DNA from: a virus
Reading direction: 5' to 3' (one strand)
Virus record (IMG/VR): IMGVR_UViG_3300027850_000002
Coordinates: 111,416 to 175,415 of that record
Length of the DNA stretch: 64,000 bases
Every line of letters starts with the position of its first letter. The first letter of the stretch is position 1. Under the pieces are notes generated by a model. The model was not told the origin of the DNA. It saw nothing but the letters and a program-made list of their open reading frames with translations, and did no database searches. Position numbers and translations under genes: made by a program. Below are positions 32,886 to 44,577 of this stretch, piece by piece.

Positions 32886-33488
32886 TCAATCAGCGTCAGA
32901 AACGCCGCAAACCACGCACACATCGTTGGAGAAACGATGAATCGCACAGGACTCAGGAGAAACGAGCGTGGAGTGTTGAGCACCGCCGAAGTCCTGTGAT
33001 GCGATGTCCGTAGGGGCGTCGAGCATGCCCATCAGCGACTTGAACCGTGTCATCTGATCGGGTCCCATACGGTCAACGACGATGCCGGCCTCCCGCAGGA
33101 AATCGGGAACATCGGCGCTCTTGCCGTAGCGGCTCTCGTAGTGCTCGTCGTAGCAGACCCTCGAGATGCCCGCATTGACGACGCGCTTGGCACAATCCCA
33201 ACACGGAGTGACCGTTACGTAGAGCGTGCAGCCCTCCGCGAAGCGGCCCGCGAAATCGATCGCGTTCGACTCGGCGTGAAGGGTTCGTACACAGTGCCCT
33301 TCGACCATCTGGCAACCAACCTCATCGCACGATGGCTGGTGTCGGGGAGCGCCGTTGTAGCCTGTGGCCACGATACGGTGCGCCGAATCGGTGATGATCG
33401 CGCCAACGTGTTTGCGAGGGCAACTTGCCCGCATCGCAGCAACGTAAGCGAAGCGCATCATGTAGGTATCCCAATCAGGGCGAGACAT
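32886..33488 (-). CDS. dCMP deaminase
   Basis: CPRKHVGA, TGYNG, HAESNAI, PCWDC. Confidence 0.9.
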   Translation of the reverse strand: MSRPDWDTYMMRFAYVAAMRASCPRKHVGAIITDSAHRIVATGYNGAPRHQPSCDEVGCQMVEGHCVRTLHAESNAIDFAGRFAEGCTLYVTVTPCWDCAKRVVNAGISRVCYDEHYESRYGKSADVPDFLREAGIVVDRMGPDQMTRFKSLMGMLDAPTDIASQDFGGAQHSTLVSPESCAIHRFSNDVCVVCGVSDAD

Positions 33489-41219: not shown

Positions 41220-41636
41220 TTAGGGCTCCTTGGGCTTGTCGGGCTTGTCGGGTTTATCGTGTTTGGCGGGCTCGCCTGCTTCACCGTTCACGAGCAATCG
41301 ATCGGGAATCGGCGGCATCAGAACAGGTGTTGGTGTCGGCTCGACGGGCAAGACAGTCGGACCGACGATCCAACCGCCCGCCTTCAAGATCGACAGGGCC
41401 TCGAGAGGTGCGTCGAACTCGGTCTCCGGTTCTCCGAGAAAATCAACAAGGCCCCATGTGATGGGAAACCGCCCTCGCTTCACACGAGCACGCACCCGCA
41501 CGCGCACAGTGTTGTTGGGGACGGGCGCGTCCTTGGACTCGGGCTCAGCTTTACCCAGTGCAGCAGGTGCGCCTTGAAGTTCAGTTTTTTCCTGTGCAAC
41601 AGGTGCACGCAGCGGTCGTTTCACCTGACGCTTCAT
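41220..41636 (-). CDS. Pro-rich hypothetical protein
   Basis: ATGA-coupled, ends in a (DKP)3 repeat. Confidence 0.5.
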   Translation of the reverse strand: MKRQVKRPLRAPVAQEKTELQGAPAALGKAEPESKDAPVPNNTVRVRVRARVKRGRFPITWGLVDFLGEPETEFDAPLEALSILKAGGWIVGPTVLPVEPTPTPVLMPPIPDRLLVNGEAGEPAKHDKPDKPDKPKEP

Positions 41637-42145
41637 GGTTGCGGCTCCCATACTCCATTGGTGACGTGACCGTGAGCGCCGCACGTACGGCACTTCAAGC
41701 TCGGCGTCAGCGTGAGCGGTTCAACGCAGATGATCTGGTGGACCGGAGCCCCGTCGAGAGGTCGCACGGCGCAGAACGACTGGCACACGGCGTTCGAGTT
41801 GCGTGCGTCGATGTGCGTGTGCAGCCAGCCGATGAGGATCTCGTCTTTATCGAGCACGGCCTCGAACGTGTGGCCATGTCCCAGCTCAAGTGCTCCGACG
41901 TGGACAAGCGGCTCCTTGGATGTAGGCTGCGCCTTCGTGGGATCATCACGCCACGCGGGCCTGCCATTGATCTCGTCGAGGTCATCGGCGGTGCGCGCGA
42001 TCGGCTCCTCGAACCTTTGCTTACGCAAGCAGTCACTGCACAACGGGCGGTGTGCGAGCGGCGTGTTCGGGACATGATAGAGACGCTCGTCGATGCGCTT
42101 GCAGTCGCACTCGCCGACGCCGACGTAGACCGGACGCTCCATCAT
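41633..42145 (-). CDS. Cys/His-rich protein with DUF6527-like C-terminus
   Basis: PLTLTPSL.C..CG.HG.VTNG.W. Confidence 0.6.
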   Translation of the reverse strand: MMERPVYVGVGECDCKRIDERLYHVPNTPLAHRPLCSDCLRKQRFEEPIARTADDLDEINGRPAWRDDPTKAQPTSKEPLVHVGALELGHGHTFEAVLDKDEILIGWLHTHIDARNSNAVCQSFCAVRPLDGAPVHQIICVEPLTLTPSLKCRTCGAHGHVTNGVWEPQP

Positions 42146-43533
42146 CAGCGCCGTCCCGGCAACGCGAACGCGGCAGCGGCGGCTTCCTCACCCAGCGAGG
42201 CCCACTTCGGATTCTGTGGTGGGCTGTGTTCTTGGATGAGGGGCTTCGCGTTGCCGAACGCCTGGCCCATCAGGTTGCCGGGACGGGCCGGGTCCTTGAT
42301 GTAGTTCGTGAACGCGTGGTTCATGCCGTGCTGGTGCGCAGCTGCAGCAGCTTCGCCGCGCTCTATCACATCAGTACGAAGGCCCGTGGGCTGACCCGGC
42401 TTGATCGGAAGGTAGTCCACGGCTTTGCCACCGACGATGTTGCCTTCGTGCACGTCGTGCAGACGCATGCCGTTGGGACGCTCGCCGCGCACGCGCGTGG
42501 CCGCTTCGAAGCTGGACGTCGCGCCCGGGTGATCGGTGGCGTGCTCGTAGAAGTGCGCGGGTCCGATCTTTGTCGGGGTCTCACCCTTGTACTGCGCGAC
42601 GTACGGGTTGCCGCGCAGTGCGGTTCCGGCCTCCGCCTTGTTCGCGACCATCAGGGGACCGGAGATGCCTTGCGGGTCGTAGACCTTGCGGACCGCGATG
42701 CCGTGCTCGGGGTGCGCGACGAGCGTCGACGTTCCCTCCATGCCGCTGCCGATGTGTTTGATCTGGCTGCCGGCCGCAGACGGCTTGAGCACGCCGGGCG
42801 TGGTAGCGAGCCGGTTCGCTGCACCCATGTTGCCGGTGTTGATGTGCTGCTGGATTGCACGCATGCCTGCGCGCGCAGCCGTCTTCTCCGTTGAGAACGA
42901 TGCGGCCTTCTCGCCGAGCGACTTCTCGCGTCCGGTCAGCGGGATCTCGTGGTGATCGCGTGCCGCTACGTGCGCGTGGTCGATCGTGAACTTTGCATCG
43001 AACGCGGGAAGGTGACCTTCAACGCGCCCCTTGTCGCCGAGGTAGCCAAGCGTAATGTGCGGGGTGAAGGTGTGGAGATCGGACGGGTCGATACCGTGCG
43101 TAGAAAGAGCACGCGACATGTCGACGTGGAGGTGTTCGAGGCCTGGCGCGTCGAGTAGCGCGACCAGAGCAGTCGAAGGCTTGCCGCCGCTCGAGGCGCC
43201 ATCGAAGTAGCCCCAGCCTTGGATCTTGGCGTCGATGGGTTCGGTCTTTTCGCCGACCTGGCGAAGCGCGGAGAGTGCGGCATGTACCTTCTCGGGTGGA
43301 TGGTCCTCGGCGGGCTTGCGCGTGTAGACCAACGTGACGTGGTCAATGTCCTTGTGCTTCGACGCATCCGGGATGACCTTCCTCTGGATTTCCCGAAGGT
43401 TGTCAGCGACATGCTCGGGCACGCGAACGTGCACGAAGAACGTCTTTGGATCAGTCGAAATCCTCGCAGTCTTCACCTGGCTGGAGGCCAGAAGAAGCTC
43501 ATCGAGCACCGCGGCAAACGAGACGGTTCGCAC
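42145..43533 (-). CDS. 2H phosphoesterase (Acb1/LigT-like) fused to a minimal protein-kinase-like domain, with K-x-A sites and C-terminal tag
   Basis: HVTL and HITL 2H motifs. IGSGMEG, AVRK, HDVHEGN, VDY kinase motifs. GTG 6 nt after TATAAT. Confidence 0.75.
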   Translation of the reverse strand: MRTVSFAAVLDELLLASSQVKTARISTDPKTFFVHVRVPEHVADNLREIQRKVIPDASKHKDIDHVTLVYTRKPAEDHPPEKVHAALSALRQVGEKTEPIDAKIQGWGYFDGASSGGKPSTALVALLDAPGLEHLHVDMSRALSTHGIDPSDLHTFTPHITLGYLGDKGRVEGHLPAFDAKFTIDHAHVAARDHHEIPLTGREKSLGEKAASFSTEKTAARAGMRAIQQHINTGNMGAANRLATTPGVLKPSAAGSQIKHIGSGMEGTSTLVAHPEHGIAVRKVYDPQGISGPLMVANKAEAGTALRGNPYVAQYKGETPTKIGPAHFYEHATDHPGATSSFEAATRVRGERPNGMRLHDVHEGNIVGGKAVDYLPIKPGQPTGLRTDVIERGEAAAAAHQHGMNHAFTNYIKDPARPGNLMGQAFGNAKPLIQEHSPPQNPKWASLGEEAAAAAFALPGRR

Positions 43534-43538
43534 GGGGA

Positions 43539-43547
43539 AATTATAGG
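43539..43547 (-). promoter_or_regulatory. CCTATAATT leaderless promoter
   Basis: TATAAT on minus strand at 43540-43545, GTG at 43533. Confidence 0.6.
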
Positions 43548-43585
43548 TGTTCCGGCCGTTTGCACCGGAACCAAAAAAAAATCCA

Positions 43586-43594
43586 CCTATCATT
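43586..43594 (+). promoter_or_regulatory. CCTATCATT leaderless promoter (divergent partner)
   Basis: TATCAT 43588-43593, ATGs at 43597 and 43600. Confidence 0.5.
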
Positions 43595-43596
43595 AC

Positions 43597-44028
43597 ATGA
43601 TGGTCCCACCACCACCGAAGACGATCGCGGCGATCATTGCTGGTGTCGTCATCGCAATCACGCCTGCACTGTTTGGTTACTTGCAGAGCCGTGATGAGAT
43701 CAGCGCGAAGTATCGACTGACCCAGGATGAAGCCGCGAACGGCTACACCGCGCTTGCCACGTCAGTCAAAGAACTTCAGGCCGCGATGACGGCACAGCAC
43801 GACTACATCGTGAAGCTCGAGGGACATCTCGAGGCGATGGACAAATTCGTGCTGTCGAACATCGACAAGCCCATGCTGATGCCTACGGTCGACGGCCATC
43901 AGCCGCCTGGAAAGCCTGTCACACCGGAGCAACCACCCAAGCCGATCGAACCGCCTGCAAAGCCCTCGTTTGGGGATCTACCGGCCGATTTCACTGCGGC
44001 GACGCAACAGGCTGCACCGTCGTCGTAG
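43597..44028 (+). CDS. TM-coiled-coil-Pro-rich protein (spanin-like topology)
   Basis: N-terminal TM, coiled coil, Pro-rich tail. Next to the SLT gene. Confidence 0.55.
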   Translation: MMVPPPPKTIAAIIAGVVIAITPALFGYLQSRDEISAKYRLTQDEAANGYTALATSVKELQAAMTAQHDYIVKLEGHLEAMDKFVLSNIDKPMLMPTVDGHQPPGKPVTPEQPPKPIEPPAKPSFGDLPADFTAATQQAAPSS

Positions 44029-44046
44029 TGTGTTAAGATCCGCGAC

Positions 44047-44577
44047 ATGTCAATCATTATCGCGTTTCTGACGTTGTTTCTTGTATCGGCAGATGATGTA
44101 GAGACCTTCCGAGCGACCGCGCCGTCCTACCTCACGACAGAGACCGCACGTGATCACCTGGTCGCAGCACGTATGGCCGCTGTGTATCATCGTGTCGATG
44201 CGGACTTGCTGCTCTCGATCGCATGGTTCGAGAGTCGTTACACCATCGACGCGGTAGGGCCGATGGTCCGCGGCAAGCGTGCATGTGGCGTCCTCCAGCC
44301 GATCATGGAGCAGAGGTGCAGCGAGACGCCGTCTCTGATGGGCGGATACTTCGAAGGCGCCAAGCACCTGCGCGAATGGATGAACGCGGCGCGTGGTGAC
44401 ATGCGCACGGCGATGCTCGGGTACGCCGGCGGCTACGCACTGATCAAGGCCTGCGACGAAGGGCCGTTGATGGTGCAACGCGGCGGCCGTGAGGTGGACC
44501 TGTGCACCGTCGTCAACGCCCGCTTCTCCCGCATGCGTTGGATTCAACGTATGAGAGCAAAAAAGACCGCCGTCTAG
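44047..44577 (+). CDS. lytic transglycosylase (SLT) with signal peptide
   Basis: LLLSIAWFESRY (catalytic E), ACGVLQ, GYAGG. Confidence 0.8.
   Translation: MSIIIAFLTLFLVSADDVETFRATAPSYLTTETARDHLVAARMAAVYHRVDADLLLSIAWFESRYTIDAVGPMVRGKRACGVLQPIMEQRCSETPSLMGGYFEGAKHLREWMNAARGDMRTAMLGYAGGYALIKACDEGPLMVQRGGREVDLCTVVNARFSRMRWIQRMRAKKTAV

Follow-up and report, generated by a model that had tools for sequence, protein, structure and literature searches.

Recent work has established phage kinases as broad weapons against defence (T7K, PMC13645617), and 2H nucleases destroy immune nucleotide signals (Acb1, PMC9117128). One gene of the virus record IMGVR_UViG_3300027850_000002 joins one phage kinase and one 2H enzyme in a single, probably late, gene, which raises the question of what such a two-enzyme protein does and whether it represents a new kind of system. 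The gene lies in the last 64 kb (positions 111,416 to 175,415) of this 175,415-bp IMG/VR record, which is estimated to be 94% complete; the whole stretch of 64,000 nucleotides analysed here is referred to as the window, and positions follow its numbering.

The 462-residue product, referred to as the 2H-kinase protein, is most likely a two-headed host-directed effector for the takeover or disarming of the host, and on balance we read it, with a little more confidence than doubt, as a phage effector with two functions and of ‘polyvalent protein’ type. It is a reshuffled form of such multi-enzyme phage proteins, which have been described before, and not a new kind of system. Both domain types, and their role in phage-host conflict within multi-enzyme and often head-associated proteins, are already in print; the new details are the 2H-kinase fusion, an unannotated kinase family and a bracketed insertion site. 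That the protein is a new domain combination within a described class is well supported.

Identity of the two domains

A first-pass annotation of this gene, made from the sequence alone, proposed an Acb1-like 2H phosphoesterase fused to a minimal kinase. The fusion of a 2H domain to a minimal kinase-fold domain is borne out by Pfam, by comparison of a family profile with the PDB and by the fold matches of both structural models. Residue numbers follow the 482-codon long open reading frame (ORF), in which residue 21 is the GTG at 43533; the coordinates of all features are collected in Table 1.

The N-terminal half is, by its family matches and predicted fold, an intact 2H phosphoesterase of the LigT/cyclic phosphodiesterase (CPDase) type. 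The two HxT motifs read by the annotation, HVTL (residues 85–88) and HITL (residues 179–182), are present, and both of their histidines are invariant across 41 family members. The Pfam models PF13563 (2'-5' RNA ligase/LigT superfamily; E 1.5e-14, 54.8 bits, cut-off 27) and PF02834 (LigT_PEase; E 5.4e-9, 36.5 bits, cut-off 23.3) are both passed, and in PHROGs the protein matches phrog_755 (E 6.8e-9). An AlphaFold (AF2) model of this half was built on the family alignment, with a mean predicted local distance difference test (pLDDT) score of 88, and a VIA search matched it to 20 solved 2H enzymes with Z scores between 9.3 and 17.6. The closest fold is that of the D. radiodurans CPDase (Z 17.6, root-mean-square deviation (rmsd) 3.2, 166 residues), followed by E. 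coli LigT (Z 16.6), the P. horikoshii 2'-5' ligase (Z 16.0) and Usb1 (Z 15.8); Foldseek agrees with this result (E 8e-9). The viral 2H folds matched are those of mouse hepatitis virus (MHV) ns2 (Z 12.9), the Burkholderia phage BCSR5 phosphodiesterase (PDB 9q2g, Z 11.5), on which no paper was found, and the penguinpox cyclic GMP-AMP (cGAMP) phosphodiesterase (Z 9.3).

The label ‘Acb1-like’ fares less well. The Pfam Acb1 model (PF23474) scores 25.1 bits (E 1.6e-5), under its cut-off of 27 and against 54.8 bits for the LigT-type model, and it scores lower still in other family members. In the structural comparison Acb1 (7t27) reaches a Z of 10.3 (rmsd 3.5, 132 residues, 23% identity) versus 16.6–17.6 for LigT and the CPDase, and AKAP18 also fits the model better than Acb1 does. 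The comparison with Acb1, LigT and kinase folds that the annotation had proposed as a check therefore returned a kinase fold and a LigT/CPDase fold, with Acb1 not the closest. These results do not place the protein in the Acb1 family, although its 2H domain may be active on cyclic oligonucleotides. The domain is preceded by a short leader with one helix (2H model residues 6–17) and a stretch of pLDDT below 50 (model residues 18–22), in which K41 of a K-T-A sequence is kept in at least 90% of the 41 members; after the last strand of the 2H model the pLDDT is ~60.

The C-terminal half is predicted to be a minimal Hanks-type Ser/Thr kinase-like domain in which the ATP-binding and phosphotransfer residues are all retained. 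Its identification needed a family profile compared with the PDB and a fold search because Pfam and PHROGs are silent: Pfam gave zero kinase matches at E ≤ 1 on the protein, including the kinase half alone, and the Pkinase cut-off was not reached, whilst in PHROGs no kinase family was matched, either by the whole protein (E ≤ 0.1) or by the kinase half on its own (E ≤ 0.01). Just one of 62 aligned relatives matches PF00069 (E 4.9e-4). An exhaustive HMMER search of 1.84 billion representatives recovered 160 related clusters at 50% identity, and the locus thus exposes an unannotated minimal-kinase family that has no Pfam or PHROG model and whose nearest ESM Atlas clusters are all viral. The profile of this family matches M. 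tuberculosis PknA and PknB (E 6e-7 to 6e-6), with the alpha-C, hinge, catalytic-loop and DFG regions in register in the profile alignment.

The kinase motifs read by the annotation (IGSGMEG, AVRK, HDVHEGN and VDY) are all present and follow the Hanks order, G282-x-G284-x-x-G287, K303, D380-x4-N385 and D393, in register with PknA and PknB. Across the 62 aligned relatives E286, G287, K303, D380, N385 and D393 are invariant, G282 and G284 are present in 60–61, and K390 and E350 (60 of 62) are also nearly invariant. Conservation of all the catalytic residues argues for an active kinase. E350 closes a strand (residues 346–350) in which H347 is found in 44 of the 62 members and Gln in 9, and the 62-member alignment contains no conserved His before D380.

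The AlphaFold model of the kinase half (pLDDT 93, predicted template modelling (pTM) score 0.87) places it in the same fold. The best 50 matches in VIA are, without exception, protein kinases or pseudokinases (Z 8.2–10.8, rmsd ~3 Å, 114–137 residues), Foldseek gave 81 matches at E ≤ 1e-3, all 50 of those listed being kinases, and the ESM Atlas agrees on the kinase fold; a BFVD fold search gave weak kinase matches only, none of them close. Most VIA alignments span model residues ~46–183, that is, the N-lobe, the catalytic loop and the DFG region. The structural matches end near model residue 182 (protein residue 406) and none spans the whole C-terminal subdomain, in agreement with the very short C-lobe of the annotation. 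Past D393 the activation segment, the APE motif and helices F to I are all missing; their place is taken by ~70 residues of confidently predicted helices (model residues 183–252, pLDDT mostly >90). N385 and D393 are 8 residues apart, compared with 13 residues at the equivalent distance in PKA.

The kinase module opens with a helical extension (model residues 2–28 and 32–39, pLDDT 93–97), in which K237, G254, A259, A263, G267 and G275 are each conserved in ≥90% of the 62 members. This extension occupies the region that had been taken for a KxA-rich linker, and the proposed enrichment is not there (five K-x-A versus 3.5 expected, P = 0.26); four K-x-A sites are conserved in position in most of 8 orthologues.

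Module exchange and comparison with known proteins

In the relatives examined, the 2H gene always occupies the same genomic slot and its C-terminal part varies. Behind the 2H domain there is a short tail only (283 aa, L003), a cupin (L004) or a kinase (window, L001 and P0005), with DUF5661 and other modules as further C-terminal variants in the clade. The 2H and kinase domains are also found apart: the 2H gene is kept in two relatives whose genomes are complete and carry terminal repeats (187,862 and 184,915 bp), neither of which has the kinase anywhere, and stand-alone kinases of ~300 aa are lone genes in more distant phages of ~206–212 kb, where the GTG lies 6 nt past a -10-like hexamer. The motif S-L-G-x-[KE]-A-A stands on both sides of the variable part in 33 of 68 family members, with no gap between its two copies in the shortest form and ~800 residues in the longest. 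In the window genome it occurs twice among 216 ORFs, both times in the 2H-kinase protein, with 0.34 occurrences expected. In one relative (P0013) the kinase is gone but the final residues of its module are still there, a trace of module loss.

By this distribution the kinase is an optional insert and not an obligate partner of the 2H enzyme, which argues for two independent activities over two steps of one pathway. A bracketed insertion site behind a constant 2H domain also offers a simple natural system in which to study the swapping of effector modules by phages.

Fusions of this general type have been described by Iyer, Burroughs, Anand, de Souza and Aravind (2017, PMC5512222), whose sections on protein kinases and the 2H domain are the basis of the comparison made here. 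Those sections report polyvalent-protein kinases that lack the C-lobe, carry a Glu before strand 2 and are predicted to phosphorylate host proteins, and polyvalent 2H domains that are fused to MuF or portal proteins, for which RNase activity or the breakdown of defence nucleotides is predicted; neither section describes a 2H domain fused directly to a kinase. Like the polyvalent proteins, the protein studied here carries unrelated enzyme modules in one phage polypeptide, shuffled among relatives; like their kinase clade it has lost the C-terminal subdomain, has kept the active-site residues and carries E286, a conserved Glu immediately ahead of strand 2. Its 2H domain, as in the polyvalent versions, has no ligase partner and has relatives fused to portal or head proteins. 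In contrast to the polyvalent proteins, it has only two modules in 462 aa, the window copy lacks a MuF, portal or peptidase domain, and the conserved Gln of the last N-lobe strand is replaced by His or Glu. A further trait of the described clade is an insert in the phosphotransfer loop that separates its conserved His from the Asp. The described kinase clade comes from (pro)phages of Verrucomicrobia-Chlamydia and Bacteroidetes, whereas the family here belongs to uncultured phages of ~150–215 kb.

Comparison of each half with its best-known counterparts shows a similar mixture. LigT (ThpR; 4qak/5ldm) and CPDase (5h7e/5h7f) give the best sequence and fold matches and share the two HxT motifs and a domain of ~175 residues; the phage protein differs in its N-terminal leader and fused kinase, and identity is just 17–25%. 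Acb1 (T4 gene 57B; phage FBB1 Acb1, 7t26/7t27; Hobbs et al. 2022, PMC9117128) is compact, with ~150 residues and a C-terminal lid. It too is a phage-encoded 2H fold with two catalytic HxT motifs, and a role in destroying nucleotide immune signals is plausible for the protein here, which differs in its sub-threshold Pfam score and in its lower fold similarity to Acb1 (Z 10.3) than to LigT and CPDase (Z 16–17.6).

The T7 kinase gp0.7 (T7K) disarms defences through promiscuous phosphorylation (PMC13645617). Both T7K and the kinase here are small phage kinase domains without canonical regulation, and broad phosphorylation of host proteins is proposed for the latter. The sequence relationship to gp0.7 that had been suggested is not detected: there is no PHROG match, and the motif D-[YF]-L-P in this family (D-Y-L-P in the window copy) stands against D-P-V in T7K. 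Furthermore, T7K is the product of an early gene and has a shut-off/DNA-binding C-terminal domain, whereas the gene here has a late-type promoter and its kinase an N-terminal 2H domain. Similarity to the Hanks kinases PknA, PknB, PknE and PknI and to minimal Rio2 is clearer (E 6e-7; Z 8.7–10.1, Rio2 Z 9.3), with GxGxxG, VxK, DxxxxN and D-[FY] in canonical order, although the phage domain is without the activation loop, APE and helices F to I, and has an extra two-helix N-terminal extension and a different C-terminal helical bundle.

Two further elements of the relatives touch on this modular arrangement. The DUF5661 (PF18905) module of ~60 residues is present in many relatives (P0012, P0013, P0008, P0047 and P0045), with the signature ...PGG.(S/A)D...P.DF...EHT...A.EIA.DHL.E.P.YY.KL, and lies behind the 2H domain, ahead of either the second bracket motif or the kinase; a search of the window genome found neither DUF5661 nor Acb2/Tad1. 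At least 18 of the 68 relatives, including P0002, P0004, P0007, P0009, P0011 and P0028, carry after the second bracket motif a C-terminal tail of ~30 residues (...QHR..PGKGTT.P..GG.P.QGS), which could be a docking or targeting peptide.

Expression, possible delivery and likely function

The favoured reading, a bifunctional host-directed effector, would have each enzyme work on host targets independently of the other. The 2H domain would hydrolyse a 2',3'-cyclic, 2'-5' or cyclic-oligonucleotide phosphodiester, its substrate being immune second messengers or nuclease-cut RNA ends, and the kinase would phosphorylate host proteins with the low selectivity of the T7 kinase, blunting defence or redirecting metabolism. 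The gene would be expressed late and leaderless, and the protein may enter the head and reach the host together with the DNA, possibly with a cut between the modules. If virion delivery is true, two counter-defence activities would act before phage gene expression.

The sequence ahead of the gene suggests late, leaderless expression. The TATAAT (43545–43540) within CCTATAATT lies where the annotation had placed a leaderless promoter, and the element is both recurrent and conserved. The window holds 7 copies of CCTATMATT versus 0.04 expected; in 6 of the 7 a start codon follows 2–10 nt downstream and opens an ORF of 87–464 codons, and the remaining copy stands before the tail sheath gene, where the leader is of normal type. 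CTATAATTTCCCCGTG recurs unchanged in the related phages L001, L003 and L004. As the CCTATAATT class also stands before the tail sheath gene and a lysis-like gene pair, it points to a late class, and the timing of the 2H-kinase gene would follow from this.

Virion delivery is plausible because members of the 2H subfamily elsewhere are fused to a portal protein or an XkdF head protease; the late-type promoter lends it further indirect support. Among more distant members (35–42% identity), the C-terminus of a portal protein is fused to 2H (P0084), and P0250 and P0251 combine 2H, a Dam methylase and an XkdF head protease and adjoin a head structural protein (E 1e-69). The kinase family in turn occurs in a 1682-aa protein, LigD_N (3'-phosphoesterase)-SNF2 helicase-kinase (P0166, L088 631–5679), on a 5.9-kb metagenome contig, an arrangement that is classical for polyvalent proteins. 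Such fusions are of the kind to which Iyer et al. (2017) gave that name. On these comparisons we place head loading and delivery with the DNA slightly on the doubtful side of even, and we consider cleavage between the modules unlikely. The model for such delivery is T4 Alt and the T4 internal proteins, which are made late, loaded into the head via a capsid targeting sequence, processed there by its protease and, once injected, active on the host immediately. The leader here has no match to the tag proposed for this genome.

Several observations weigh against the favoured reading or against its delivery step. Neither the strict tag pattern nor the N-terminal loading tag proposed for this genome is present in the 2H-kinase protein, and the window copy has neither a fused head protein nor the ~30-residue C-terminal tail of many orthologues. 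The bracket motif was considered as a genome-wide cleavage code and ruled out, since among the 216 ORFs it is private to this protein, and a general head protease is therefore unlikely to use it. The 2H gene is conserved across the clade with 60–79% identity; such constancy is less typical of sporadic anti-defence genes, and the 2H enzyme could have a housekeeping role in the phage cycle. A kinase that lacks substrate-docking elements might also act on something other than protein. Finally, a tblastn search with the 462-aa protein against 50,697 phage records gave zero matches, and hence no cultured relative. The C-terminal tag claimed by the first-pass annotation is likewise unsupported: the loose pattern G-x3-A-x3-[FYH] is as common in shuffled sequences (P = 0.135) and is absent or out of register in 8 of 8 orthologues.

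These observations leave room for an enzyme pair that is not carried in the virion and works in the cytoplasm late in infection, for example against abortive-infection systems that structural proteins trigger, or on RNA and proteins of phage or host in assembly or lysis. The promoter type and the bidirectional region shared with the lysis-like pair suit such a role, as do the same promoter type at the tail sheath gene, the position at the head of an operon with fibre-like genes and the features missing from the window copy (head-protein fusion, genome-type loading tag and conserved C-terminal tail). Set against it are the joining of the 2H subfamily to portal or head protease in other phages, the conserved N-terminal leader and the conserved K-x-A in a disordered stretch, and we treat the late pair as a serious possibility that we lean against. 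In a more elaborate form of delivery the 2H protein would be a cargo carrier, whose module between the brackets (kinase, cupin, DUF5661 or an ~800-aa insert) is made late, head-loaded via the N-terminal leader, cut at the brackets and injected, so that a ready-made phosphodiesterase and a promiscuous kinase would be at work ahead of all phage gene expression; we regard this as improbable. The C-terminal domain could also be a pseudokinase or scaffold, leaving the 2H domain alone catalytic. The missing activation segment and helices F to I would agree with this, and the alpha-C Glu of the window copy is shifted by one position versus most relatives (A320/E321), but residues of the kind usually lost in pseudokinases are here invariant (E286, G287, K303, D380, N385 and D393) or nearly so (G282 and G284) in 62 diverse members, and a dead kinase is hard to credit.

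Two alternatives give the protein a more specific task. The first-pass annotation envisaged an Acb1-type nuclease against CBASS (antiphage signalling based on cyclic oligonucleotides), prepacked in the virion with a gp0.7-like kinase, cut at K-x-A and acting at injection. The weak Acb1 Pfam match, the Acb1 structures among the fold matches, the late-type promoter, the head-protein fusions of the 2H subfamily and the conserved K-x-A at residues 41, 229 and 237 can be cited for it, together with a 73-aa Acb2/Tad1-hairpin (PF24729) gene that lies two genes upstream of one orthologue on the opposite strand (P0005 contig, Logan SRR20217180) and fits an accessory or counter-defence neighbourhood. 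However, the Acb1 score is under the family cut-off with LigT-type models scoring double, CPDase/LigT, Usb1 and AKAP18 fit better, no PHROG match links the kinase to T7-type kinases, the C-terminal tag is unsupported, K-x-A is unenriched and K237 sits inside a confidently predicted kinase-module helix and not in a free linker, all of which makes the complete scenario quite unlikely. The main rival is an RNA/DNA end-healing unit, in which the 2H domain would open 2',3'-cyclic phosphate ends and the kinase would phosphorylate the 5'-OH for resealing by a host ligase, the breaks being left by host anticodon nucleases or other metal-independent nucleases, as with the cyclic phosphodiesterase and kinase of the fungal and plant tRNA ligase. 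It draws on the closest folds, which are cyclic phosphodiesterases and LigT, and on the fusion of the kinase family to a LigD 3'-phosphoesterase, an end-healing enzyme (P0166); the kinase-fold module could phosphorylate nucleic-acid 5' ends instead of proteins. It is weakened by the missing ligase (neither an Rnl-type ligase, PF09414, nor RtcB, PF01139, in the 94%-complete genome), by a kinase that is dispensable in complete relatives keeping the 2H gene, so that the pair is not obligate, and by the fact that Hanks protein kinases are the best matches in both sequence and fold. We know of no polynucleotide kinase with this kinase fold. The same sections of Iyer et al. (PMC5512222) state that polyvalent-protein 2H versions never associate with RNA ligases, and end healing is in our judgement very unlikely.

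Gene start, control region and neighbours

The minus-strand frame 42145..43593 is open for 482 codons, and a start at the GTG at 43533 gives the 462-aa product, with the stop at 42147–42145. This GTG is taken as the true start because most homologues begin there (residue 21 is the first residue in most of 113 relatives from a 5.8-billion-protein collection) and because the upstream ATG is out of frame in the relative L001, a 157-kb JGI contig in which the GTG and the preceding 16 bases are identical to the window. The ATG at 43593 was ruled out as a start on the same two grounds, and the gene boundaries of the annotation, 42145–43533, are those of the true gene.

Table 1. Features of the 2H-kinase locus in window coordinates
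Feature	Position	Strand	Basis
Coding sequence of the 2H phosphoesterase-kinase, 462 aa	42145..43533	-	ORF, homologue starts, L001 frame
N-terminal leader, residues 21–47, short helix and low-confidence linker with K-T-A (41–43)	43453..43533	-	AF2, 41-member alignment
2H phosphoesterase domain, residues 48–225; HxT motifs at 43330–43341 and 43048–43059	42919..43452	-	Pfam, AF2, VIA, Foldseek
Boundary motif 1, S-L-G-E-K-A-A, residues 225–231, end of 2H module	42901..42921	-	Motif search
Helical N-terminal extension of kinase module, residues 226–275, conserved	42769..42918	-	AF2, 62-member alignment
Kinase core, residues 276–406	42376..42768	-	Profile versus PDB, VIA, invariant residues
Gly-loop IGSGMEG, residues 281–287	42733–42753	-	Kinase motif
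Lys303 of AVRK (residues 300–303)	42685–42687	-	Kinase motif
Catalytic loop HDVHEGN, residues 379–385	42439–42459	-	Kinase motif
DFG-like D-Y-L-P in VDYLP, residues 392–396	42406–42420	-	Kinase motif
C-terminal helical subdomain, residues 407–476, replacing activation segment and helices F to I	42166..42375	-	AF2, VIA
Boundary motif 2, S-L-G-E-E-A-A, residues 466–472, overlapped by the annotated ‘C-terminal tag’	42178..42198	-	Motif search
CCTATAATT promoter-like element, -10-like TATAAT ending 6 nt before GTG	43539..43547	-	Recurrence, conservation in relatives
In-frame upstream ORF extension, non-coding, carrying two divergent promoter elements	43534..43593	-	Homologue starts, L001, element copies
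Divergent unit: CCTATCATT (43586–43594), 143-aa protein with N-terminal transmembrane helix (43597–44028), 176-aa SLT-like protein (44047–44577)	43586..44577	+	ORFs; SLT E 0.003 (below cut-off)
Downstream 170-aa gene, ATG overlapping 2H-kinase stop by 1 nt	41633..42145	-	ORF; weak phrog_15183, E 4.5e-4

The 2H-kinase gene and the divergent unit share a bidirectional control region of 56 bp (43539–43597), in which two CCTAT(A/C)ATT elements stand back to back with a T/A run between them, one leading to the GTG 6 nt away and the other to an ATG 2 nt away; this layout is kept in L001 and L004. The 143-aa protein of the divergent unit has a Pro-rich start, one transmembrane helix and a coiled-coil-like tail, and the 176-aa protein has a hydrophobic N-terminus in addition to its weak match to SLT transglycosylase. 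The pair looks like a lysis or cell-wall cassette, and counterparts (genes of 147–205 aa) are conserved in relatives. A related layout is seen at two of the stand-alone kinase genes (L005 7960–8003 and L006 7966–8003), which are alone on their strand: TTGACC, a spacer of 17–18 nt, TAnnCT, 6 nt and GTG, a leaderless arrangement with a sigma-70-like -35 element.

Neighbours in the window include tail sheath, baseplate hub, endolysin-like, head-decoration-like and tail-fibre-like genes and a dCMP deaminase, and the 2H-kinase gene heads an operon with fibre-like genes. The 170-aa gene immediately downstream is translationally coupled to it, the ATG lying over the TGA, and encodes a protein with a C-terminus rich in Cys and His; in all the relatives examined, syntenic genes of 146–167 aa come after the 2H gene. 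The relatives L001, L003 and L004 have, downstream of fibre-like genes, a conserved run of DUF1653, dCMP deaminase, RyR-domain and YpsA-like genes, which hints at nucleotide or DNA-modification metabolism; the dCMP deaminase, the only member of this run checked in the window, lies at 32886–33488 on the minus strand.

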